The notes below the pieces were generated by a model. The model was not told where the DNA came from and did no database searches. It saw only the letters and a list, made by a program, of their open reading frames with translations. Both the position numbers and the translations under genes were made by a program. This document shows, one piece after another, positions 6,961 through 62,403 of a stretch of DNA of 64,000 bases (positions are counted from its first letter, which is position 1; every line of letters begins with the position of its first letter). Source of the DNA: a virus. Lineage: Duplodnaviria; Caudoviricetes. The stretch is taken from positions 60,869-124,868 of IMG/VR virus record IMGVR_UViG_3300028048_000079. One strand, written 5' to 3'.

Positions 6961-8607
6961 ATGGCTAAGTATAATTTAAATAGAAAACAATTGCAAGAAC
7001 ATATTGAGGCTGTATTGGCAGAAGCCCTATATGACAATGATATGTCAAATCTTGCTAAAACAACCGGCGAAACAATGGACGATGACTTCCTCGATTCAGT
7101 TGCTTATTATGATAATATAAATAACGGTCCTGAAGGCCCTGTTTATGCTGATAGAAAAGCAGAAGAAATGTCATCCGATTGGAGAGAAATAGATGACCAA
7201 GCAGCAGATACACAAGCCAAATACGGAAAAAATGCTGATGAACTTGATAAACTCAATGCATTCTCAGATACTATTGACCAATATGTCAATGACACAAATC
7301 TGAATGGATATGAGGACAATAGTGGCTTCATGGCTATGCGTGACTATGATGATGCACGTGCAGAAGCAGAACACCCAATGGAGTCAATTATCCGTAAAAT
7401 GGTCAAAGAAGCATTGTCAACTGTGCATGTTGGGGATTATGACAAACCAAATCATCCGGATGATTTCTCAAACAATTACAGAACCAACGCGCATAAATTT
7501 GCACATGATGGTGTAGATGCTTATTTCGCAAGAAAAGACCAAGATAAAATGCACAAAAAAGAAAAGGATAACATGAAACGTGCAGATAAACGTGCAATGG
7601 CTGCTGCTGATAAACGTCCGTTACACCGTAAAGGCTCTCTTAACCGTGCATTTGAAAGTAAAATAAGAAATATGGTCAAAGAAGCACTTAACGAATATTC
7701 AGATGATGATGCCTTTTGGAAACAACAGCAAGATGATGAGATGAGTTATGATATGAGAGAACTCACCAAGGCAATGCAACAAGCCAACGGTACATATCAT
7801 GCAAAATCATCTGACGGACAATTCCAAACCGGTGATAAAGTAATTGTACACGGTAGAACTCAAAATATAGAAGGTGTCATTAAAGATTTCGGTACACACC
7901 TCATGACATGGGAAGAAACTTGTGATGTTGATTATGAGAAAGACGGAAAAACATGGACATTGCTATCAGTTCCCCTTAACAAAATCGAAAAGGTAACTGC
8001 AAACGAAGGAAAAATTCATGAGGAAATAGATACAGGCCAAGTACGTTCATCACAGGATAACGAAGACTCTAAAAGACATAGGTTAAAAAGAGATGAGGCG
8101 AATAAAGAAATTAACAGACAAATAAGGAAATTACGTCAACAAATTTCTGATTATGAGGATGATGGAAAAGATACAACACCACTTACTAATAAAATCAAAT
8201 CACTGAAAAAACAACTTAAAGAGTCGTGGTATCCAGAAGAAGATGACGATTTGTCAGACTATTCATATGGTGCAATCATGAAACTTAACGTCGACGGAAT
8301 GTTCGATGAATTGACACCTGAGAAAGTACAGGAATTGCAATCAGTAAAGGATGAATATATTGACAATTCCAATAACTATTCATCAGTCTTGGTAAGACAA
8401 ATCTTACTTCAACCAGATGGATTTGATGGATATGATGTGTCAGTAGAGGTTGCTGTATCTTCTCCTGATATGCCAATGGATGCAATCGAAGAAGAAGTTG
8501 AAAGCATGGTTTGGTACTACATCGAAGAGAAAACTGGCGTAAGAAGCCCAAGAGTCTACATAGTAGATGAAAAGGAAGTATTCGACAGACGTTCAAAAAA
8601 TAGATAA
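6961..8607 (+). CDS. Acidic multidomain protein, probable internal head protein
   Basis: Repeated linkers ESIIRKMVKEAL / ESKIRNMVKEALNE and LKE, IHE motifs; TATTTAT at 6921 upstream. Confidence 0.5.
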   Translation: MAKYNLNRKQLQEHIEAVLAEALYDNDMSNLAKTTGETMDDDFLDSVAYYDNINNGPEGPVYADRKAEEMSSDWREIDDQAADTQAKYGKNADELDKLNAFSDTIDQYVNDTNLNGYEDNSGFMAMRDYDDARAEAEHPMESIIRKMVKEALSTVHVGDYDKPNHPDDFSNNYRTNAHKFAHDGVDAYFARKDQDKMHKKEKDNMKRADKRAMAAADKRPLHRKGSLNRAFESKIRNMVKEALNEYSDDDAFWKQQQDDEMSYDMRELTKAMQQANGTYHAKSSDGQFQTGDKVIVHGRTQNIEGVIKDFGTHLMTWEETCDVDYEKDGKTWTLLSVPLNKIEKVTANEGKIHEEIDTGQVRSSQDNEDSKRHRLKRDEANKEINRQIRKLRQQISDYEDDGKDTTPLTNKIKSLKKQLKESWYPEEDDDLSDYSYGAIMKLNVDGMFDELTPEKVQELQSVKDEYIDNSNNYSSVLVRQILLQPDGFDGYDVSVEVAVSSPDMPMDAIEEEVESMVWYYIEEKTGVRSPRVYIVDEKEVFDRRSKNR

Positions 8608-10727: not shown

Positions 10728-11310
10728 TTACTTCATTCCTTTCCTTTAATTTCTTTTTATATTCAATATATTCTTCAGAAGAAACATCTGCATAACCAAC
10801 TATGCTTATAGTAGGAACATGCTCATGAGTATCACCCTCACCTAAACAATATACATGATAACTGTCATCAAAACTATCAACCTCAATTCCACGTACTTTA
10901 ACCTCTTCAATGCTTATTGGTGGCATACAAACAATACCTGTATATACATTGTTGTGCCCATCAATCCATTTAATAATGTCACCACGCTTGTAATCATATT
11001 TACTTGCTATATGACCCTTGTATTCTTTTGTAACCTCATGAACCATTACAACAGAACCATCAATGAGCTTGTATTGACGGGTACATTCCCAACCATCAAA
11101 CCCACCATCATTTACAGACAATGAATTGTCAATTACATACTCATCAGTAATAAACATCTTGTAAGAACTGTCAGCCTCACATAAATCTTTAATTACTGCT
11201 TCAGCCTTTTCATAGGTACTGTAATAACCTACAAAAGAATTGAAAAGCATTTCATCTTTGTCAATATCAGCATAGTCATATACTGACTTTAATTCAATTA
11301 TTGTATTCAT
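10708..11310 (-). CDS. Hypothetical protein
   Basis: 200-aa ORF translationally coupled to its neighbours. Confidence 0.75.
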   Translation of the reverse strand: MNTIIELKSVYDYADIDKDEMLFNSFVGYYSTYEKAEAVIKDLCEADSSYKMFITDEYVIDNSLSVNDGGFDGWECTRQYKLIDGSVVMVHEVTKEYKGHIASKYDYKRGDIIKWIDGHNNVYTGIVCMPPISIEEVKVRGIEVDSFDDSYHVYCLGEGDTHEHVPTISIVGYADVSSEEYIEYKKKLKERNEVNGLQKG

Positions 11311-11780
11311 ATTTTATCAATTTTTTTTATGGTTTCAACTTTTAACCTTACTGTCATTCTATGTCTATCACCTTTTCTATGTATAGTTTCCGTTTTTAAT
11401 GTTTTGTAATCTGTTTTAATAATATCTTTATCATAAAATAAATGTTCATCAATTACATAAGGAAAACAGATATTATAAACTTTTATATTAGGGGATATCA
11501 AACTTATATCTAAATCATCATTATCTTCCCACGTTATAAGAGCAAAATAATCCACCGAATTTGAGTCATAATTCTTATCTTTGAATTTATCCCCAATAAT
11601 AACATCTTCTTCAATTATCGTACATTTAACATCAACGACATCATCTGGCTTTGCACCATAATAATGAGCATGTCTTTTATCAATTTCAAATGCAGTAAAA
11701 AATACTTTATCTGATTTATTAGTTTCTAATACTGCCGTTGTTATAAAAGAAGTACCGACTTTATAATCTTCTATCTTCAT
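11307..11780 (-). CDS. Hypothetical protein
   Basis: 157-aa ORF overlapping the next start (ATGA). Confidence 0.75.
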   Translation of the reverse strand: MKIEDYKVGTSFITTAVLETNKSDKVFFTAFEIDKRHAHYYGAKPDDVVDVKCTIIEEDVIIGDKFKDKNYDSNSVDYFALITWEDNDDLDISLISPNIKVYNICFPYVIDEHLFYDKDIIKTDYKTLKTETIHRKGDRHRMTVRLKVETIKKIDKI

Positions 11781-11799
11781 TTTAAATATATACTAATTC

Positions 11800-12025
11800 T
11801 ATTTTGAAAATCAAAAAATTTTTCTGGAATTTTTTTTTGAAATAACCTTTAATAGAATAAACCCCACCCCCCCCCTTATTTTTTCCCGGATTTTTTTCAA
11901 AGATTTGCAGAGCAAACCGTGTGCCACCGTCAGCCGGAAACATAGGGGGTGGCGGAGACGTGGGATACGTAGGTAGGGGGTACATAGGGAGGGGGTGCAG
12001 CAGTCCTACCACATCCCCTCCGTGT
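11800..12025. other. Non-coding A/T-tract plus poly-C / G-run island (candidate terminus, packaging or G-quadruplex site)
   Basis: C4-A-C9 at 11862-11875; five runs of 3-5 G between 11945 and 11995; several T-tracts; abrupt GC spike. Confidence 0.4.
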
Positions 12026-12026
12026 A

Positions 12027-12042
12027 TGTTCCACGTGAAACC
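12027..12042. promoter_or_regulatory. parS: parS-like site
   Basis: TGTTCCACGTGAAACC versus the bacterial parS consensus TGTTNCACGTGAAACA (one terminal mismatch). Confidence 0.75.
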
Positions 12043-13146
12043 TTATGCAGCCATCAGCAGTTGGTAAGCATCCTCGACCTTCTTCTGTGCGCTACCGAAC
12101 ATCATAGCGTTGAACTTGTCTTCCTGAGATTTCCAATTCTTCTCATTCTGAAGGTAGGTAGTCACACCATTCAGCAGCCACACCTTTGTGCCACGATTGT
12201 ACTCCTGTCCTACTCCATTCTCGATGCTGTCCGTCAGGGCTGCCATAATGTTCTTTGTTCGTGTGCTGATTTCCTCAACGTGGTCAGCCTTGAAGTCAGC
12301 CTTCTTCCAAAGTTCAAAGGCGGGAGCAGTCAGACACAACTTGCCTACGAAGTCACGTGCATATTCAGCAGTGATGGTCTCCTCCTTGAGTCCAAGCATA
12401 CGCTCCATGAACTTGTCGCTAAATTTAACTGACTTGCTGAAAAGTTCAGCGGCAATTTTGCGGTTGCGCTCGATAGTCCAATCAAGACGCTCGTCGACCT
12501 TAGAAGTGTGCTTGAACACCACTTTGTTGGCGCAGCCCTTAATGGCCATGTTCAGTGTGTTCTGACAAATCACACGAATCGGTGTGAAGAAAGCCATGAC
12601 ACCGCCACTGCCATCATGTGAGTTAGTGAACACCACATAGTTCTTGATTGCGTCGTTAGGGTTAAGATACGAATCCTCACCAAGTGTAGCGGTGATGAAC
12701 ATACGTTCGCCATAGCCAAGTGCGCCATAGGATTCGATAACGGGTTCGCTACCACTTGCCTCCTTAATGAAGTCCATGAAGTCGAAAGCCTTGCTGTTCT
12801 GCACGATTCCGTAGCCCTTACCTACGATACCAAGTGTGTCGTTATTGTCAGTGCGCAGCGTAGCCTTATGGGTGTTAATGATGTCGGCCACTGACGGATT
12901 CCAATCGAAAGCCTCACCTTTGCGGATAGCCTCAACCATTTCAGAAGGTACACGCATCAGTGGCATTTCGCCCACCTCATAGTTAATGCGGTTTTCACTT
13001 GTTACGTCTGCCATAACGTCGTGGATGGTTGCACCCTTCTCGCAGATTGTACCGAACTGCTGCCATGCTACACGCTGTGCACCCGTCTCTGTGTTAGGGT
13101 TAACGTTCACGTTACTCTGTCCGTTGATATTCAAAACTTGTGTCAT
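12043..13146 (-). CDS. DUF932/DUF945 (TIGR03299-like) phage/plasmid protein
   Basis: LGIVGKGYGIVQN, NSHDGSG, TPIRVICQNTLN, KHT motifs; higher-GC codon usage; C-terminal MAA. Confidence 0.85.
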   Translation of the reverse strand: MTQVLNINGQSNVNVNPNTETGAQRVAWQQFGTICEKGATIHDVMADVTSENRINYEVGEMPLMRVPSEMVEAIRKGEAFDWNPSVADIINTHKATLRTDNNDTLGIVGKGYGIVQNSKAFDFMDFIKEASGSEPVIESYGALGYGERMFITATLGEDSYLNPNDAIKNYVVFTNSHDGSGGVMAFFTPIRVICQNTLNMAIKGCANKVVFKHTSKVDERLDWTIERNRKIAAELFSKSVKFSDKFMERMLGLKEETITAEYARDFVGKLCLTAPAFELWKKADFKADHVEEISTRTKNIMAALTDSIENGVGQEYNRGTKVWLLNGVTTYLQNEKNWKSQEDKFNAMMFGSAQKKVEDAYQLLMAA

Positions 13147-13330
13147 AATAAATAATGTTTTAAAGAGTTATTACTATTTGTTTTAATTTCACGATGCAAA
13201 GGTAATAAAAAAAATTGATATATGCAAGAAAAAATGAATTTATTTTTAGTCGTTTTAATTTATTTAACAATTGAACATTTTTTAACGAATTTTTAACAGT
13301 CAATTAACATAGAAATTCAAGATTATTTTG

Positions 13331-13400
13331 TACCTTTGCATTGTCATTCAGAAGATGGATGAAGGGTAAGGATGACACCTTAGAGTATAATCTCCGACAC
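13331..13400 (+). repeat. Promoter + conserved ~30-nt non-coding motif, copy 1
   Basis: TACCTTTG at 13331, then GGATGACACCTTAGAGTATAATCTCCGACAC at 13370-13400; no ORF follows. Confidence 0.8.
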
Positions 13401-13509
13401 ATTCATTGATAATATGTTAATTTATGTTTCAAAATGTAAGTAAAATAAAATCCGTCCTATCCTCTCGGACTGAACGGACTAACAACAATATAAGTCAAAA
13501 ACTAAAACT

Positions 13510-14040
13510 TCATGCTGCTTCTGCCTTTTTAATTCCTTGTTTGTACGGATAGCCACCCGTATAATCTATAACGGCTGTCATGACTTCTTTGTAATACTTC
13601 TCCATTTTGTTGGCAAGGTCTTTCATGTCCTTATAGCTCTGTTTGCGGAACTTCTTTCCGCCATTGTCGACCAATACATTCTGCATCGACTTCATGGCGA
13701 GATACTTGTACTTTGGTGTGGTCTTGTCATATGGTGAAAGCCATACAGAGCCACTACAGAACACAGATACCTTCTTGTTATATAAATCTATTTTAAAGTC
13801 AATGTATATTGAGTTTTCAGAAATGCCGTTGGGGTAGTCCTCCTTCTTCAGTGCATCCAATCTCACAAAGATAATATAGGGGCAGAAACCGCCCACTTTG
13901 CCCACAGAGACGTTTTCAGCAGTGCTGATGGGTATCAGATAGTCACGTAGCATTTCTCGTTGCTGTTGCCATTCTGTCACGTTCTTAGGGTCACGCATTG
14001 CGTTTTCCTTTGCCATGATGTTGTTAATATCGTATGCCAT
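13510..14040 (-). CDS. Hypothetical early protein (C-terminal AEAA)
   Basis: ATG at 14040 downstream of a minus-strand promoter near 14094-14101; terminator hairpin near 13450-13478. Confidence 0.75.
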   Translation of the reverse strand: MAYDINNIMAKENAMRDPKNVTEWQQQREMLRDYLIPISTAENVSVGKVGGFCPYIIFVRLDALKKEDYPNGISENSIYIDFKIDLYNKKVSVFCSGSVWLSPYDKTTPKYKYLAMKSMQNVLVDNGGKKFRKQSYKDMKDLANKMEKYYKEVMTAVIDYTGGYPYKQGIKKAEAA

Positions 14041-14271
14041 AATTTTAATTGAATTTAAATTGTTAATAACTGATGTTCTTTTTAATAACGCTGCAAAGGT
14101 ACAAAGAAATTCTGATATATGCAAATATTCTGTGCTAAAGAACGTTAAGCGGCCAATGTTTTTCCAGTTTCTTTACATTTCAGATTATCCATTACCTCTT
14201 TTGCGTGGTCATTCATTGACTTGTCACCGAAAGCAAATTTGGCTTTGCCATTTACAAAATATATCATACCT

Positions 14272-15062
14272 TTAAATCATTGTTATAAGTTCATTAATAA
14301 AATACCTCATATCGTCAGCATAATCTTTTAAATCGTCCCATGATGTTCTGTATACGTTAAAATCTTCAGGGAAAAACTCAGACATATGCTCATAAGTGGG
14401 TTTATCACCATAAATTCGTTGAATTAACTTTTCTTGAATGGTTGTCGGCTCTCCGTCTAAAATTAAATGATATCCTTTTGGTTCTGTGCCGTAAGCCTTG
14501 AAGAACTCTACAGCGTCATGGCTGTTTGATGGGTCATTAACCAACGCTTTCCATTCCTTTTTGAATTTTTTGGACTTTCCCCAATAATATTCTTTATTGT
14601 TACCTTCATTGAGATTTATTGCAATTATTTTCATGTTGTTTTATTTTTAGATGTTAATAATTTTTGTTTTTATCCGTAGATTTCCTCGCCAAAGACGATG
14701 GTTTGCAGTAGGCAGTCAGCATCTAACATATCGCCTTCTTCTGTCATAATGTTGGCATATTGTCTTGGATAGTGGAACATAAATTTCTTGAAACCCTTTT
14801 CGATATCCTTAATGGAAACCTTATATTCCTTTTCTTCTTCTCTGTCCTCAATCAGCAGATAGCCACCATTGATTAAGACATAAGCCCAAATGTCCTCTCT
14901 GCAATCATACATAGTTTTGGCTGTTTCGTACAATTCCTTATCGGTGTCTTGATGTGTGCCGAATGATGCCCAATAGTTGCCGTAACTTGCATCTGAAAGC
15001 CATGTTGAAAGCCAATCGTGGTTTGTAATAATTGCTTTAACTGAATTTATTTTCTTTGCCAT
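14272..15062 (-). CDS. Two hypothetical proteins (14272-14634, 14670-15062)
   Basis: Co-oriented ORFs with A-rich leaders behind a promoter near 15114. Confidence 0.7.
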
Positions 15063-15200
15063 AGTTGTATTGAATTAAATTATATCTCGGAATTATTCCT
15101 TGATTTCTGTGTGCAAAGTTAATCATAATTTTTGAGAAAAACGAAGGAAATACATTTTTTAACCAAAGATTAACATTTGTTTAGATTTATATAATGGGGT

Positions 15201-15262
15201 GTGTTGGAGACTATACTTTAGAGTTTCACCCCTACCTCTTTTATTTTTCTACTGCAAAGATA
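15201..15262 (-). repeat. Promoter + conserved ~30-nt motif, copy 2
   Basis: Minus strand TATCTTTG, then AGAGGTAGGGGTGAAACTCTAAAGTATAGTCTCCAACAC. Confidence 0.8.
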
Positions 15263-15366
15263 GTAAAAAAAGTTGAGATATGGAAATTATTTTTGTTAAT
15301 TGTTATTAACTGATTGTTAATAAAACAAAACAAGGGAAGAGTGGTTTACCCTTCCCTTTTGGCTGA

Positions 15367-15382
15367 TGTTTCACGTGGAACA
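15367..15382. promoter_or_regulatory. parS: parS site
   Basis: TGTTTCACGTGGAACA; the reverse complement TGTTCCACGTGAAACA fits the consensus fully. Confidence 0.85.
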
Positions 15383-15383
15383 T

Positions 15384-15926
15384 TTAGGCTGCATCTGCCA
15401 TCGGCTCGTCCTCCTTCTCCTTGACGGGAATATTAAGGTTCTTACAGAGGGCTTCATAGTTGCCACGTGCTCCACACTGCTTGCCCAATTTCTCGGACTT
15501 GTTGAGGTCGTTGATGAACGTCACGAAGTCGTTGGAAACTCTCTCGTAGTAACGCATCACTAAGCGGATGGTCACGTCTGACATCTTCTTTCCCTCAAGG
15601 CCGTTATACTTGTTGTACTCCATGCCCATCATGTGAACTTGCTCGACCTTGCAAGCCTTGAACTGCTTGTAGCCCTTCTCGAACTCCGACATCTTGAAAG
15701 CACCCTTAGAGACACCTACTTGAAGGATGAAATAGAATGGGATGGACTTGTGGCTATCTGCAAAGGCCACGATTTCCTCACAGATACGCTTGTGCAGCAG
15801 AGCCTTCTGTCGTTCGTCATAATGCTTTGTACCTTCCTTCTTGTACTGCGGAAGATTGTACTTTCCGTTAATCTTGTTAGCGGCTGTGTTGCGGATTGCG
15901 GTTTCAACTGAATTTTTCATAATCAA
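15384..15926 (-). CDS. Hypothetical early protein (C-terminal DAA)
   Basis: Higher-GC ORF with its own promoter near 15985; parS begins 1 bp after the stop. Confidence 0.8.
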   Translation of the reverse strand: MIMKNSVETAIRNTAANKINGKYNLPQYKKEGTKHYDERQKALLHKRICEEIVAFADSHKSIPFYFILQVGVSKGAFKMSEFEKGYKQFKACKVEQVHMMGMEYNKYNGLEGKKMSDVTIRLVMRYYERVSNDFVTFINDLNKSEKLGKQCGARGNYEALCKNLNIPVKEKEDEPMADAA

Positions 15927-16711
15927 ATCTCCTATTTTTAAATTGTTAAACTTAATGTGAATTACTTGTCTTATTTTGACACTGCAAAGGTAATAAAAAT
16001 ATTTGAGACTACCAAATTTTTAAATACTTTTTAACTGGAAATACCGTTATTTAACATTCGTTCACTAAAATCAATCGTTATACATCAAAACTTGTTCGAT
16101 TGCATCACATACATGGTCGTAGCCACTTCCGTACTGCTGACCTTCTTCATCAAGGACAACAAAACCTTCAGTCCAATCATGTTGGATTGTGTAACGTCCA
16201 ATTTTCAGATGATTTTTATTTATTGCTACCATACATTATTAATATTAAAGGGTTATTACTAATTGATTTTTGATAGCGCAAAGGTAATACTTTTTTCTGA
16301 AATATCCAAATATTAGATGAATTTTATTTGTTAAAGAACGTTAAAAATTAAGGGATATTAACAATTTTAATTGGCTTACATTGGAGATTATACTTTAGGA
16401 TTTTACTCCTACCTTTTAATTTTGATAGTGCAAAGTTAAGGAAAAAAACTGAATTATGCAACTTTTTTGTGCTAAATAATATTAAATGAATTGTTAAAAA
16501 TTGTTTTGTGGGAAAGCACTTCGGTCTCGCTTCTACGTTAGGCTCTGAACACTTGTACTTTGTGCCTTTTGGCTTAACTCCACTACCCTCCAAAGGTAAC
16601 TCCCACAAAACTAAAATAGTTCGCAACTTCTTTCGTCCATAGCGACATGGATTCTTTTCTTAGGCTCTGTTGCTTTTCCTAATAGGTGGGTAGCCACCCC
16701 ACCACGTATCT

Positions 16712-18094
16712 CTATGCAACCTCCTTGAGGCTGATGTATCTTTCACTCCATTTCCACTTTATTTGAAATGCTGCATCATGGCAATTTTCACGGTAGGCTT
16801 GAAGGTCTGCCTTTGCCTCCTCTTTCGTGGTGCAAAAACATTCCACGTCCCATCCTTCGCCATAGTTGGACATCACACATGGACAAAGCGTAAACTCTGT
16901 CAATTCACCATCCCAATCTTTTGTGAGACGTTTAGCTGTTTCTTCTGTAATGTCACGCAAACGGCAAGCCTTCTTGCAAGCCTTATAGGTTCTGCCAAAG
17001 TTTACTAAGCCGACATACAATCCGCTTTTTAACTTGATTTGATATTCTGTCCTATTTGCCATAACTTATTACTATTATAAATTGATTTTTAATTTGACAC
17101 TGCAAAGGTAATACTTTTTTCTGAAATATGCAAATTATTTTAGTTAAAAAGCGTTTCAGAATTGTTAAAAGATGTTAACCAACTCTCATTACATATACAC
17201 CTTCGTAGTCACCACCAAAATCGATATCAGCAACTTTTTCACCTATTTTGAGGTCTGTGAATGGTCTGCCATCGGTTGCAACTTCTAAACCTAACTTCAT
17301 AAAATCCTCTGCTGAACGTACAACATGAACTAACGGCTTGTCACCATCTACAGCCCATGATTCGCATTCTGATGTATTAATAACAAGGTATGCACCAAAA
17401 TTTTTGTTGTACTCTTTTATTTCTAAACGTTCCATATTAAAAAACTAATTTATATTATCTCGGAATTATTCCTTGATTTCTGTGTGCAAAGGTACAAAGA
17501 AATTTTGAGAAAAACGAAGGAATTACATTTTTTAACATGACTTTAACGTTTAATATAGGAAATGTTAAATCTTAGTTAAAAAAGTGTTAAAGTGCCGGAA
17601 ATATTTGGTAATTTAAAAAATTATTCGTACCTTTGTATCGTCAATGAAAGACAAGGGGCAAAGGTGAAACTTTGAAGTATAATCTCCGACATGGGTAATT
17701 ATTTTTTCTTAAAAAACGTTAAAAGCAACCCCACCTACTTTCACAAGCGGATGGGGTAAAACTGAAATGCCTAAAATTTCCAAAGGTGAGGAGGCTTTTA
17801 TGCAGCCTCCTTCTTCACATAGCTGGTAAGGTCGTAAGTACCACGCGGTATGTGTGTGTCCGCACCAACTTCTGTAAACTTTTTTCCACGTCTTTCAAGT
17901 TCCCTACGTGTATAGGCCTGCTGCTTGCTTGTGGTGCAAGAATACTTGCAGACGTTAAACAGAATGCCATCAGCCGTTTTTTGGGCGATGCAAGTCGCAT
18001 AAGAATACAACTTCGTGCCGTTAGTCCGCATTGAACCATTCTGCTTTTCCTGACCATTGATAAAAGCGTTAATCAAATCTACATTACTAATCAT
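16712..18094 (-). CDS. Three monocistronic hypothetical early genes (16712-17062, 17175-17435, 17798-18094)
   Basis: Each has its own TAnnTTTG promoter; 17798-18094 carries LYSYxTxIA...YSxTTSKQQ, a common phage motif. Confidence 0.7.
17604..17692 (+). repeat. Promoter + conserved ~30-nt motif, copy 3
   Basis: TTTG at 17604, TACCTTTG at 17628, GGTGAAACTTTGAAGTATAATCTCCGACAT at 17663-17692. Confidence 0.8.
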
Positions 18095-18349
18095 ATCTGT
18101 ATCTCCTATAAATTAAAGATGTTAAACTTGTGGGGTGTCATTCCCTTAACTTTTGACGATGCAAAGGTAATACATTTTTTTGAATTATGCAAATTTTTGG
18201 GTAATTATTTTCGTCCAATTTTGTTTAATTAACACTTAAGTGTATCATTTCTTAACAAATCATAAAAAAACGCTAAAAATTTGGTGGTTTCAAATATTAT
18301 ACTTACCTTTGCATTCGATTTCAAATAACAATTCAAAATAATAAGGTAT

Positions 18350-18523
18350 ATGAATAATAAATCAAAATTTCTCTTAGTCCTAATAACGCTAATTTATTGT
18401 GCCATATTGTATTATGGTGTATTCTGTTTATCCAATCCCTACAAAAGCAGTCTGTTGATTTCTGTAGGGTTTATTGCTGTTATTTTAGCCTATGGCTACG
18501 TATTTGAGAAGTATAACAAATAA
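18350..18523 (+). CDS. Small two-TM membrane protein (57 aa, not in the ORF track)
   Basis: MNNKSKFLLVLITLIYCAILYYGVF...AYGYVFEKYNK, after promoter at 18304. Confidence 0.65.
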   Translation: MNNKSKFLLVLITLIYCAILYYGVFCLSNPYKSSLLISVGFIAVILAYGYVFEKYNK

Positions 18524-18537
18524 AAAATTTTTACGTT

Positions 18538-20012
18538 ATGAGTTGTCCTAATTTCCACAAAATCAATGCACATAATTATTATGTCGTAGGCGATACAACA
18601 ACCGCCTATGATGATGAACTTGAGGAGGAGGTCGAGGTAACGAAGGATTCCTTTGACTACGATTGCGATATAGACTTTGCACAAGAAAGCGCAAAGGAAA
18701 AAGGTTTTGACCCCGTGGACTACAATGACCGAAATTCCTATCAGAATAGTATGTGTGCATCTTGTCTTTCATCTAAATCTAAATGGTATGCTTTCGGCAA
18801 AAAGGGTGCTAACATGGATTTCAACAACTTTGAATTCAGTCAAGAAATTTATGTTCATAGCGGCCATTATTCCGGAATGAACTACGATTGGGATATTTGT
18901 ATATCTGATAATTTCGGTAATCACTTCCGGATTTCTGAATACGATTCTATAGAGTCTCTTGTGGATGATATTGCCGACACATGGCAAGAAAATGCTACAG
19001 ATTCATGGTATGACACATGGAATGCCGGATTGGCTAAAATCCAAAGGAAAAACCTTGTGAAGTGGCTGAATGGTATGATAGAAAAACTATCTGATGAAGT
19101 CGACGATGTGTGCCGATATATCTGTGAGGAGGTTTACGTATGTGGCGGTATCTTCTCAAATGGTGAAGCTGTCTATTACAAAGAAGATAGTCTTAAAGGT
19201 AAGGTGAACAACGTGGAGGCTGCATAAGTCTCCACACCGCTACCCTATGTACTCGAATGGGTACAGGTTAACACAAATATCAATTAAAATAAAAAATTAT
19301 GTTACGTTATAGCGGAGAAAAATTTCAGATGGTTGATAGGAAAGGAATAGTCCATGAAGTCCTACAAGTAACCAAAGGTAAGGCTAAGAAAGCCTATGAG
19401 GAAGGCAAACATATATGGATTCACCCTTGTAATATGCGTGTATCAAATGTATGGCAGTCACCAATGCCTTTCAACAAGAAAGCGATTGAAGATAATGCCT
19501 TCCTAATGAATAGTACGTTTGATGATATTGTTAATGATTTCCGGTATTACAACTGCGACAATGAACGTGGAAAATATCCTATCTTCTTCGTGGCGGCAGC
19601 GTGAGCAGACCCCATGTACTCAAATGAGTAACAAATAACATCAATTAACAATTCATTAAGGTTCTTTAAGCAAAAAAGTTTGGTAGATTAAAAAATTATT
19701 CGTAACTTTGCAGTCGAAATTAAAACAATAAAGAATATGAGAGAAGACTATAAGTATGGCCAACGGTACGGCAGACGTTTTTTTGTTGGAATCGACATCG
19801 CTCTTGTGGCAATGGTAGTATATGCTTTCAATGCCGAGTGCTATTCATCTGAAGAAGTAAATACATTCAGTGAGGACACTTGTAAGTCTCTTGCAAAGCA
19901 CGATAGTAAAAACGTCCATATCTATGAGTATGAGACAAAAAATATCGACAACATTTGTAATGCCATTAACAGAGAAGGCAAAATCGTGTTTGTAAGAGCA
20001 TTTGAAAAGTAA
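18538..20012 (+). CDS. Three hypothetical early proteins (18538-19227, 19299-19604, 19737-20012)
   Basis: Full ORFs with typical leaders; the first two end in EAA and AAA. Confidence 0.75.
19249..19264. repeat. Dispersed palindrome GTACTC-RAAT-GAGTAC (also 19616, 20390, 28764, 49688, 61435)
   Basis: Six near-identical intergenic copies, all just after a stop codon or tRNA end. Confidence 0.85.
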
Positions 20013-30775: not shown

Positions 30776-32440
30776 ATGAGCATTATTACACATAAATTAG
30801 AAGAATACAACACAATAGAAAGTATTAACGATTTGGTTGGTAAAATTAACGAAAAACTTCCTAACAGAAGTGACTGTAAAATTTATCCAAACCAGATGAA
30901 GTGCGCAATTAAAGGTATTAAAATGTTTGATAGTAATTTACCTCGTCCAAATCATTTAGTGGTACAAGGTAAAACACAAGCAGGAAAAACTGGTGTTCTT
31001 ACTTCTATGATTATGCTTATTGATGAGTTAAAAATAGAAGGGGCAATGTCAGTTAATACCATATATTATATTACTGGTGACAATGGGTGTAAATTAATTA
31101 AACAAACACAAGAAAGAATTAGTCATTGTTTTACTGCTGACGGAATCGAATGTGAATTCAAATGCCTCAAAAATTCAGACCTAAAAAATGACATTAGTAA
31201 TGAACAAGTTCTAACCAATACAATTATCTTCATTGATGAAAGTCATTATGGTGTATCAAGTGAAAAAAATATTTTAATAAAATGGTTAGAAAGTAAGGCT
31301 ATTAATATGCACAATGATAAGGAACTTGTTGAGAAAAGTGTTTATATTGTATCTAATAGCGCAACCCCATATGGCGAAATAAATTCTGATTGTGGTAAAT
31401 ACAAAAGTTATGTTGCACTTGAAACAGATGATTGGAATGGTGAATATGGTTATGTCGGATTTAAAGAATATAACAAAAAAAACTGTTTCCGTACAATTAC
31501 TTCCCAAATTAATAAGGGTAATGTGGTCGAAATGTGTGAACAACTGTCAACTCGCTTAAATGAAATACACACAAATACTGGTAAAATGAAATGTGGTATA
31601 ATCAGAATGCGTAAAGAAACATTTAAAAAGTGCCAAGATGTTTTGGAAGAATATTTTCACGTAGAAACATATTTTTCAACAAATGAAAATATTAATTACA
31701 GTGATATACAATGGAAAATGGAACACGAATGTGAAGATTGGGGTAAACCATTAATTTTCGTGGTGGCCGGTGCTTATAGAATGGGCGTTAGTATTCCGTC
31801 TACTTGTAAGAAGAATATTGGATTTATCTTTGATTATGCAACTGGCAATGCCAAAAATAGTGTTATAACAACAGAGCAAGGATTGCTTGGTCGTGTTACT
31901 GGATATTGGAAAACAGATGATTGGTGTGATATAACTATATACATAAACGAAAAACATTATAATGGTCTTAAAGCGTGTTATGTAGAACAAGCAATTTCAA
32001 CACCAATGGCTGATGTTAAACAAAAATTTGTACCAAAAGAAGAAGGCACAAAGGTCGGTATTATAAGTGATGATGATTTTATTGAAATTTTTTGTGATGA
32101 AAAGTTTGGCGATAAGGAATACAACCATAAGGTAAAAGAGTTTGTGGAAACAAGTCTTAGAGAAATGGGAAAACCTTTACCAGAAGATATTGTTTGGTTA
32201 CCTGGTCGAAGAAATGATAAAAGGAACAAGGTTAGGTTTAGTCAACCAACATTTAGTTTAAAAGAAGATGGTGCTAGGTCGATTTTATCTAAAAAAGAGA
32301 ACATCAATAAACAATGTTATACAACTTTGTATGATATTGATGAAAATACCATTAAGGTTAGATATGGAAAAATCGTAAAAGGTGATTATGTTGAAACCTA
32401 TGATGAAAATAAGAAAATAATACATACTTTAACAACATGA
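30776..32440 (+). CDS. SF2 helicase-like / DExH ATPase
   Basis: Walker A GKTQAGKT, Walker B IFIDESH, motif III SATP, motif VI EQGLLGRVTGY. Confidence 0.8.
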   Translation: MSIITHKLEEYNTIESINDLVGKINEKLPNRSDCKIYPNQMKCAIKGIKMFDSNLPRPNHLVVQGKTQAGKTGVLTSMIMLIDELKIEGAMSVNTIYYITGDNGCKLIKQTQERISHCFTADGIECEFKCLKNSDLKNDISNEQVLTNTIIFIDESHYGVSSEKNILIKWLESKAINMHNDKELVEKSVYIVSNSATPYGEINSDCGKYKSYVALETDDWNGEYGYVGFKEYNKKNCFRTITSQINKGNVVEMCEQLSTRLNEIHTNTGKMKCGIIRMRKETFKKCQDVLEEYFHVETYFSTNENINYSDIQWKMEHECEDWGKPLIFVVAGAYRMGVSIPSTCKKNIGFIFDYATGNAKNSVITTEQGLLGRVTGYWKTDDWCDITIYINEKHYNGLKACYVEQAISTPMADVKQKFVPKEEGTKVGIISDDDFIEIFCDEKFGDKEYNHKVKEFVETSLREMGKPLPEDIVWLPGRRNDKRNKVRFSQPTFSLKEDGARSILSKKENINKQCYTTLYDIDENTIKVRYGKIVKGDYVETYDENKKIIHTLTT

Positions 32441-60100: not shown

Positions 60101-62403
60101 TCAGTGCATTAAACATCAAGACCGGTGAAGATGTCACACCTATGTATTGTCTGAAAAACTATTACAATGAGGGTGATGCAACAGATGATGCAATCGCCCT
60201 TGCTAATCAGTTCAAAGATGATGAAGAAGTTATTGAGATTACTGTCTACGCCGGTGAATATGAAGATGTAGATACTTGTGATGTGTTTGGTGAGCCTTTT
60301 GATATTTTCACGGCTACAAATACTACTAAGGAAAAATCAAGGATTGCAAGAGAGAAAGAGAATTATGTTAAAACCACCGGACTTAATTATTATGCCGGTG
60401 AAGAATAATAGATAAAAACTAATTAAGATTTATGTTGCAATATTTGGACAAAAAAGATGAATGGCATACCTTAGATTTAATGGCAGTAAAGGAAATTATT
60501 CCGGAAGGTTGGGGTTGTATGAGTATTCATCTGAAAGATGGTAGTGTAATTGTCGCACAATATATGGAAAGTCGCTGATATGAACGATAATTCTCATTAT
60601 AAGAGTTAAGTTTGAACACTTTAAGGTTATAAATAACATCAAATAACTATGGCAAAAGAAAAGAAACCTACATACGGATGGGTGGAGAAATTGGTAAATA
60701 AAATTACCAAATCGAATGCACCGCTGAATAATAGTTTTTTATACTATGGGTACGGGGTTGAACAATTATCCGGTACACCCGATTATACCTCTGTGGATAT
60801 TTGTGACAAAGGTACATGGCGAAATGAGTTGGTGCGTTTTAGTTTCGATTTTCTGACAAGAGAACTGCATTTCTTTTCATACGCTGATGATGAAATACGG
60901 ATGGCATTTGTTAAGGCATTTGTCTTGTATTACGATAATGTAAATGTGTCGGACGAAACTCTTAAAGACCGGAGATTGGAATACCAGTGGTATCTTGATA
61001 ATTCAGAAGAATATGATGAAGATGTTCTGGAAGATGCCAAGAAAGAATTGGAGATTATTGATAATCTACCTATCGGTTGGGTAAAAATGAAAGATTTAAA
61101 AGACAAATAAAATGAATTCGACAAGTAAATATTCAAATAAAGACGTAGCACATAAATTTGATAATCAGAGTAGGTTAGGATATGCAATTTCCGGAAATCG
61201 TGGTGGTAATCCACAAGTAAAGGATGATATCGGTTATGCAACTTTATTCATCGACAATGCAAGTGGGTGTCAGTATGGTGGCTCTGAAATAAGTGTCAAT
61301 GCTTTCAGTGGATTTGGAGATACCTATGAGCGTAGGGATAAATGTGAGATAACAATATGCAATGAGGGAAAAGAAGTGTTCAGAGGTGGTTTTGATGAAC
61401 TTGTGAACAAATTGCAGCCAATAGAGTAACCGGCGTACTCGAATGAGTACATAAAACATTAATTGATATGAGTAATCTTTTGACAAAACTTGGCCGTGTA
61501 TATCGTGACTATTACTTTGAGGTAACTGGACGTAAAGGTGGTTACATCACACAAGAAGAAAGAGATAGAGCAAGAAAACGTAATCGTAAAAAGAATAAAA
61601 AATGAGACCGGATATTCGTTTAAAGTTGGCAAAAGAAGAATATGATTCAGCCAAAAATGAGTTTTCTCTTGCAGTTGAGAAATGGTTTGAAAAAAACTAT
61701 AAACCAAAGGAAGGAGAGGATGATGTGATGTTTAGTGACGCACATCTTCGTCCGGATGGAGATATTAGCATATCATATAGTTTTTGTAATTTTGAAACAA
61801 TGGATAACTATTATAAGAGGTTGACAGATGATGATGGCCACTATTATAGTAGCCTTATTGTGAAACCGGAAGAAGTTTTTAAATAGATTAATATTATGAC
61901 GAAAGAAGAAGCTATCACAAAGTTAAAAGAGTGCCAAAAGAATTATGACACCGAAATCGCGCATGATATCGCTGATGGTATTTTATGTGACTTACTGGAA
62001 GGATTAGGGTATCAAGATGTAGTCAAAGAATATCATAAAGTGAGTAAATGGTACGCATAATAAAAAAAAATAGATTAATATTATGACGAAAGATGAATTG
62101 TGGAAAAAACTTACAGAAGCCGCTGAAAAATACGAGAAAGAGAAACAAGAAATTTTGAAGCAATGTGCTGAAGAGAATTGTGATATTAAAATCGGTGATA
62201 TTGTTACAGACCACTTTCAAACAATAAAGGTTGAAAAAATGACCTATTATTATGATTGTATGAGACAAATGCCGGAAATGGTATTTTACGGTGCTAACTA
62301 CAAGAAAGACGGAACAATTTCCAAAAGGCAGCAACCTACACAAGCACCGGTTTATCAGACAAATGTGACGTTCGTTAATGGGGAAAAATATAAATTCAAT
62401 TAA
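57113..62403 (+). CDS. Array of hypothetical genes (starts 57113, 57476, 58107, 59141, 59442, 59786, 60076, 60649, 61112, 61602, 62083, plus several under 60 aa)
   Basis: Co-oriented ORFs behind promoters at 57077 and 59754; 62083 shares a KKDGT motif with 46339. Confidence 0.7.

Follow-up and report, generated by a model that had tools for sequence, protein, structure and literature searches.

Why would a phage that seems to encode no partition proteins carry the DNA sites on which a bacterial chromosome loads its own? The question is raised by 64,000 nucleotides of viral DNA (Duplodnaviria; Caudoviricetes), called the window below, which form the final 64 kb of a 124.9-kb IMG/VR contig (record IMGVR_UViG_3300028048_000079, positions 60,869 to 124,868; contig G000). 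CheckV puts the completeness of this contig at 32%, implying a full genome of roughly 390 kb. An initial annotation, made from the letters of the window, had reported two 16-bp sites of the chromosomal parS type, each directly behind the stop codon of an early gene, and had suggested that the phage makes use of the ParB protein of its host. Our analysis indicates that these 16-mers are probably, although by no means certainly, host-type ParB loading sites that selection has kept in T4-like jumbo phages of Bacteroidota that lack ParB, ParA, and integrase.

Both 16-mers are present where they had been reported (Table 1). Site 2 matches the chromosomal parS consensus at every position (16/16) and site 1 at all but one (15/16); read in the sense of the adjoining DUF932 gene, site 1 is GGTTTCACGTGGAACA, which places its mismatch at outer position 1. 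At the two positions that determine specificity, both half-sites of both sites read xGTTYCAC and are therefore of the parS type and not of the Noc/NBS type (TGTTTCAC versus TATTTCCC; consensus sequences used for this comparison from PMC7383237). At 33% GC, base composition leads one to expect ~0.001 exact matches in 350 kb, and the window holds four matches with at most 2 mismatches, versus 0.35 in dinucleotide shuffles. The remaining two, at 31411 and 35724, have mismatches inside the central CACGTG, the former within an open reading frame (ORF), and we take both to be products of chance. The match at 31411-31426 (TGTTGCACTTGAAACA), a near-parS with a broken center inside a 554-aa ORF (30776-32440), recurs as the same 16-mer once in G003, a complete relative; it is probably a coding-sequence coincidence that has been conserved along with the gene.

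The reported distances from the minus-strand genes were likewise borne out in the window, where site 1 begins 0 nt past the DUF932 stop codon and site 2 lies 1 nt past the stop of a 180-aa early gene, ahead of the terminator of that gene. Contact with a stop codon is, however, not a conserved feature. In relatives, the sites lie 9, 45, or ~85 to 100 nt from the stop, before or after the terminator. That they abut stop codons repeatedly can be ascribed to the very short intergenic gaps that they occupy, as host sites do too.

We found no sign that the phage supplies its own partition proteins. The annotation had noted the lack of parA and parB in the window; we found them missing from all 124.9 kb of the contig, and from 11 related records, as well. 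Six-frame hidden Markov model (HMM) searches of these 12 records returned no match to ParB_N (PF02195), to TIGR00180 parB (even at E ≤ 1), or to AAA_31 ParA, and control genomes, including B. thetaiotaomicron, were positive in the par gene searches. A phage-encoded ParB or ParA was rejected on these grounds, as was an autonomous parABS cassette of the P1/N15/actinophage type, since no parA-parB operon lies beside the sites. Phage_integrase was also missing from the 12 records, and a temperate lifestyle was set aside for want of an integrase. For par and lysogeny genes alike, the absence is carried by the two relatives that are 100% complete (G003 and G004), G000 being a fragment of ~32% completeness. 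The sites therefore appear to be orphans, with no cognate parB on their replicon.

The motif is common in the likely hosts. We infer Bacteroidota as the host phylum from host-type TAnnTTTG promoters and from crAss-like best matches; for the DUF932 protein, the catalogued phages that match best are crAss-like ones from Bacteroides. The exact motif occurs in 73 of 101 sampled Bacteroidota genomes, typically in 1 to 3 copies clustered within 2 kb, and a control pattern had no matches in the same 101 genomes. Host sites flank mnmG/gidA, a classic origin-proximal gene, in three of the four fetched loci, those in which the ~620-aa gene was scanned (L165, L166, and L168, on chromosomes G100, G007, and G026); there, parS lies 3 to 40 nt from the ends of mnmG/gidA. 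Many of the sampled genomes also have two sites ~1.9 kb apart, and in L165 such a pair brackets mnmG/gidA, a spacing that suggests a conserved centromere layout in the Bacteroidota. Because the phage sites match the chromosomal parS of Bacteroidota, borrowing of host ParB is the best reading of them.

Conservation in related phages, on which the annotation had made its proposal depend, was evident both at orthologous and at new positions, with the flanking DNA diverging around the kept sites. Relatives whose DUF932 proteins are 43 to 56% identical (L006 to L009, L012, and L013) have a parS-type site ~85 nt downstream of the gene, past the terminator, and a site downstream of DUF932 was also found in L223, L233, and L244. 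In four large records (G001, G002, G004, and G005; 237 to 351 kb, G004 being 100% complete), the site downstream of DUF932 is the only match with at most 1 mismatch, and a reversed control pattern gave 0 matches in these four. Other members carry their sites elsewhere. G112 carries a pair of perfect sites that are separated by 100 bp and lie 17 kb away from DUF932, with one of them abutting the TAA of a 111-aa ORF. In G114 (273 kb), two perfect sites follow other early genes, one of which is a homologue of the gene at 14670-15062 of the window.

Closer relatives show how the sites change while their cores are retained. The metagenome contig L221 (Ga0326512_10008296), whose DUF932 is 99% identical to that of the window, has four parS-type sites within 4 kb (reverse-complement positions 2503, 3493, 4169, and 6420), two of them in early-gene cassettes that are missing from the window. 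Since the window has two sites, parS copy number evidently changes between near-identical strains; across the clade it ranges from one to four, and all copies lie within the early-gene block. L024 is 90% identical to the window; around site 2, the two differ by a 40-nt indel and in their terminators, whereas the 16-mer is intact, and the L221 orthologue of site 2 differs at outer position 1 only. Indeed, decaying copies apart, the core GTTYCACGTGRAAC is kept throughout, and nearly all of the variation across the sites concerns outer position 1. This pattern of rebuilt flanks around a kept core points to purifying selection on the 16-mers.

An exact-match scan of IMG/VR as a whole was less informative. 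It returned at least 119 contigs, with none from the G000 clade among the matches listed, and by a rough estimate chance alone would give a count not much lower in a database this large. In one unrelated phage with 51% GC, L203 (IMGVR_UViG_3300045988_010343), the sequence xGTTCCACGTGGAACA stands at reverse-complement position 8377, 1 nt past the TAA of a small gene and followed by a terminator, so that the order stop, parS, terminator also occurs in another phage lineage.

If the sites do work as the comparison with host chromosomes suggests, host ParB dimers would recognize the phage parS after injection, close as CTP-dependent clamps, and spread across the early region. Through this spreading, the phage DNA would gain a chromosome-like partition complex, which could position, separate, or organize phage genomes by way of host ParA, SMC, or both; a stalled or slow infection might then be passed on to both daughter cells. 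ParB binding and every step downstream of it are inferred. As to the purpose, we favor ParA-based positioning and segregation, perhaps including the inheritance of slow or stalled infections, followed by SMC-mediated organization of a very large genome and then by ParB titration or the damping of early promoters. Of the proposal made in the annotation, the use of host ParB by the phage gains from the conservation of orphan chromosome-type sites that match those of Bacteroidota; in principle, the idea has a precedent in phi29 (PMC2731898).

Several observations weigh against borrowing of host ParB. The complete relative G003 has no parS site, and the feature must therefore be dispensable. Site 1 is decaying in some members of the window's lineage, which has site 2 as well: L004 shows 2 mismatches, and L225 a substitution plus a 1-nt insertion. 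In G005/L006, which has just one site, a C within the central CACGTG has become T. Identity between the phage sites and the host's own parS is shown at the level of the phylum only, and a divergent phage-encoded binder could have escaped the HMM searches. Cytosine hypermodification by the hydroxymethylcytosine (hmC) route was rejected, because the thymidylate synthase homologues found are ordinary ThyA; a DNA modification of another kind might still block ParB. Finally, Bacteroidota are not known to form endospores. Entrapment in the spore, the one demonstrated use of parS by a phage, therefore cannot apply to these hosts.

Site 1 differs from site 2 in what follows it. It opens a composite noncoding element whose parts are listed in Table 1 together with the two sites and the flanking genes.

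Table 1. Positions in the window of the two parS sites, the genes and terminator next to them, and the parts of the composite element behind site 1
Feature	Position	Strand	Remarks
parS site 1	12027..12042	.	TGTTCCACGTGAAACC; 15/16 versus TGTTNCACGTGNAACA; mismatch is the last, outermost base
parS site 2	15367..15382	.	TGTTTCACGTGGAACA; 16/16 versus chromosomal parS consensus TGTTNCACGTGNAACA
DUF932/TIGR03299 "phage/plasmid-like" early gene, 367 aa	12043..13146	-	Adjoins site 1
180-aa early gene	15384..15926	-	No family match; site 2 behind its stop
Intrinsic terminator hairpin after site 2	15332..15358	-	parS not in stem
Composite noncoding element	11781..12026	-	~250 bp, downstream of site 1
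Inverted repeat GGAGGGG...CCCCCTCC	about 12021-11988	-	In composite element
Iterons CCCTAYGTAnCCC	about 11989-11935	-	In composite element
Box GGCACACGGTT	11925-11915	-	In composite element
Two A-tract/TCCGG/A-tract motifs	about 11897-11879, 11838-11819	-	In composite element
G9 run	11867-11875		In composite element

This element stands out within its contig. It contains the only iteron cluster and the only G or C run of ≥8 nt in the 125 kb, it is one of two 100-nt regions with ≥58% GC, and its GC-rich iterons are followed by a stretch of 82 to 90% AT. The same architecture lies behind parS in five lineages (the window and four others), including G112, where it is not beside DUF932. The shared order runs from parS through inverted and direct copies of CCCTAYGTAnCCC and a box like GGCACACGGTT to one or two motifs of the A-tract/TCCGG/A-tract type and, in many cases, a run of G or C, after which comes a stretch of 82 to 90% AT. 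The number of CCCTAYGTA-type repeats varies from three to six, with four matches in the window, and in several lineages the inverted iteron copy overlaps the end of parS. When the iteron pattern was used without parS to search IMG/VR and a metagenome collection, it retrieved clade members only, chance matches aside. The IMG/VR search yielded one clade member, L210, with a 2-mismatch site, and parS lies at a constant distance of 13 or 37 nt in five of the six new metagenome copies of the element, whereas in the sixth (L225) the site has decayed. No Rfam family matched the element, and no similarity to it was found among catalogued or cultured phages. It appears to be new, restricted to the clade and nearly always accompanied by parS.

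The makeup of the element resembles that of an origin- or centromere-type cis site. A repeat cluster joined to an AT-rich stretch, the combination that we looked for as the mark of an iteron origin, is present and is unique in the 125-kb contig; no DnaA boxes were found in the element. The annotation had put the two sites 12 to 15 kb from a candidate origin. That distance found no support, since we found no independent origin signal; GC skew, which we tried as an origin marker, is uninformative and merely tracks the direction of transcription. It is conceivable, if doubtful, that parS and the iteron/AT-rich/A-tract-TCCGG element together form the phage's own origin-and-centromere module, in which host ParB would be coupled to phage replication or to an iteron-binding protein. 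With such a module, a virulent jumbo phage could persist in gut and rumen bacteria that do not sporulate, in a carrier state that is inherited much as a plasmid is.

The genes beside the two sites can reasonably be called early, as they had been in the annotation, because each has a promoter of its own: the Bacteroidota host-type sequence TACCTTTG stands upstream of DUF932 at about 13204 and upstream of the 180-aa gene at about 15992, both on the minus strand. The DUF932 protein is recognized by Pfam (PF06067, E = 1.4e-36), phrog_1221, and TIGR03299 (above the cutoff). It was considered as a possible initiator or DNA binder, but its structure gave little further information: the AlphaFold model is poor (pLDDT of 61.6) and shows no recognizable fold, Foldseek returned nothing at E ≤ 0.001, and no PDB sequence matched below E = 0.4. 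A general link between DUF932 and parS was considered and rejected. No parS was found in the fetched flanks of 10 more distant viral and 16 bacterial DUF932 loci outside the clade, and G112 has its sites and its element away from the gene, by the 17 kb mentioned above. The association is best described as a clade-specific synteny. In 2-kb bins, window positions 12001-14000 have 43% GC versus ~32 to 36% in the adjoining bins; DUF932 may have been acquired fairly recently. The 180-aa protein has homologues with 90 to 92% identity in L024 and L221.

Further features of this early region came to light along the way. Both of the proteins encoded next to parS end in Ala-Ala (…LLMAA, window 12046-12054, and …MADAA, 15387-15398, minus strand). 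Downstream of site 2, at 15100-15262 on the minus strand, the promoter TATCTTTG is followed by a short ORF-less unit that starts with GGTAGGGGTGAAACTC; this unit, which is almost identical in L024 (2560-2640), resembles a small-RNA unit. The hexamer TGTTAA/TTAACA is more frequent than composition predicts, with 135 copies in the window where 83.5 would be expected. It is concentrated between early genes (window 11000-19000; for example, 13264-13415, 15294-15315, and 17532-17585), and in relatives it stands immediately beside parS (TTAACATTnTGTTTCACG); a regulator might act on it, or it could be a degenerate half-parS.

Host ParB might bind these sites and yet serve takeover or self-regulation instead of partition. 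Replicating in large numbers, the phage genomes could draw ParB, and with it SMC loading, away from the host origin by titration, or ParB spreading from 1 to 4 sites could damp the early promoters read by host sigma factor. Silencing by ParB spreading is well documented, both with plasmid ParBs and with that of P. aeruginosa (10.1101/151340). Host-type promoters surround all of the sites, none of which falls outside the early-gene block, and a copy number of 1 to 4 would suit a dosage effect. As a sink for ParB, however, one site per 280- to 350-kb genome, the situation in most relatives, would be weak, and a lytic cycle has no evident gain from mis-segregation of the host chromosome. Site 1, moreover, is tied to a unique cis element and not to promoters. 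We consider this explanation unlikely.

A somewhat less probable alternative is that the 16-mer serves a factor other than ParB, such as a dimeric DNA-binding protein of the phage, or that it is a recombination junction at which early cassettes of promoter, gene, and terminator are shuffled. Arbiol et al. reportedly described in 2010 that promoter/stem-loop cassettes of T4-type phages are shuffled by recombination. The position of the sites at cassette boundaries, repeatedly at the 3' end of small early ORFs, would fit such a role, as would the variation of neighboring cassettes between near-identical strains, and the inverted iteron that overlaps the parS end in several lineages leaves room for another protein to bind. 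This explanation does not account for the agreement with host parS across all 14 core positions, down to the same tolerated T/C wobble. The 16-mer is missing from most of the window's cassette boundaries, and neither a ParB-like protein nor another candidate binder was found.

It seems very improbable, and is largely refuted by conservation, that DNA captured from a host or mobile element left the sites behind as a neutral relic or that they are chance palindromes. They might have arrived, for example, with the DUF932 gene, which is typical of mobile elements and sits between 12 and 14 kb of the window, where GC is 43% versus about 32 to 35% around it, and the count of exact-match contigs in IMG/VR is likewise what chance might nearly give. 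A relic would nevertheless not be expected to persist, as these sites do, across 43 to 56% protein identity and in several unrelated contexts. The DUF932 loci of other phages and of bacteria have no parS, and chance would have to overcome an expectation of ~0.001 per genome, against which the control pattern gave 0 matches.

A role at the RNA level, with the palindrome acting within a terminator or a 3' untranslated hairpin of early transcripts, is hardly credible. In the window, each site has a stop codon before it and a hairpin behind it, and both are probably transcribed. Folding, however, places the terminator stems elsewhere and allows the 16-mer no more than weak pairing over a few bases; in relatives the site lies past the terminator, so that its placement relative to terminators varies, and Rfam has no match.

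We therefore return to borrowing of host ParB as the preferred reading and compare it with what is known of other systems. In size, the phage of G000 can be set beside the T4-like "Jug" phages of Bacteroides/Phocaeicola, whose genomes are similar to our estimate (PMC12880540). Among the records that we recovered, no member of the clade is a cultured phage.

The parABS systems of P1, N15, and actinobacteriophages resemble the present case in that a centromere-like site lies on phage DNA, where it serves inheritance. Those phages, however, have a ParA and a ParB of their own, use their own non-chromosomal parS, and are temperate or plasmid-like, none of which holds here. Another parallel is the integrative mobilizable element SGI1, which hijacks the ParB of IncC plasmids through parS sites of its own (PMC10954446). 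Like the phage, SGI1 is a mobile element without a ParB, and its parS is recognized by the ParB of another replicon. Unlike the situation proposed here, the ParB in question comes from a helper plasmid and not from a chromosome, and SGI1 is not a phage.

With the chromosomal parS/ParB/SMC system (Lin and Grossman 1998; Livny et al. 2007; consensus from PMC7383237), the phage sites share the same 16 bp, a low copy number, and a location in short gaps beside gene ends, and the possible origin-like element that adjoins site 1 adds to the likeness. They differ from chromosomal sites in that no cognate parB is present on the same replicon and in that the replicon is a virus. Lin and Grossman reportedly found in 1998 that a single parS stabilizes a plasmid.

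The nearest precedent is phi29, which has five host-type parS sites and whose genome is helped into the prespore by Spo0J, the ParB of its host, as recounted in a report that cites Meijer et al. 2005 (PMC2731898). The principle that a phage can borrow the parS/ParB of its host is thus already published. Like phi29 and Nf, which that account places among the virulent Bacillus phages, the phage of the window appears to be lytic, has no ParAB, and carries host chromosomal parS. By the same account, phi29 is a 19-kb protein-primed podophage of a spore former, with five sites and spore entrapment as their shown use. The window, in contrast, derives from a T4-like jumbo phage of ~390 kb (CheckV estimate) in non-sporulating Bacteroidota, and its clade usually has one or two sites (up to four), all of them in the early region and one of them fused to a unique iteron/AT-rich element. 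For phi29, the use of parS by Spo0J is described as demonstrated, whereas the case made here comes from sequence comparison.

What is new, then, is the T4-like jumbo type of the phage, the non-sporulating host, the low and variable copy number, the confinement to the early region, and the fusion with a composite element, which gives the clade a concrete candidate for an origin or centromere. Since the hosts do not sporulate, the benefit would have to differ from that in phi29 if host ParB binds; candidates are the positioning of replication factories, SMC-mediated organization of a 300- to 400-kb genome, and the inheritance of stalled infections. The last of these, if true, would bear on the open question of how phages coexist over the long term with gut Bacteroidota. 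Binding of host ParB would, in short, extend the phi29 trick to T4-like jumbo phages of non-sporulating Bacteroidota.

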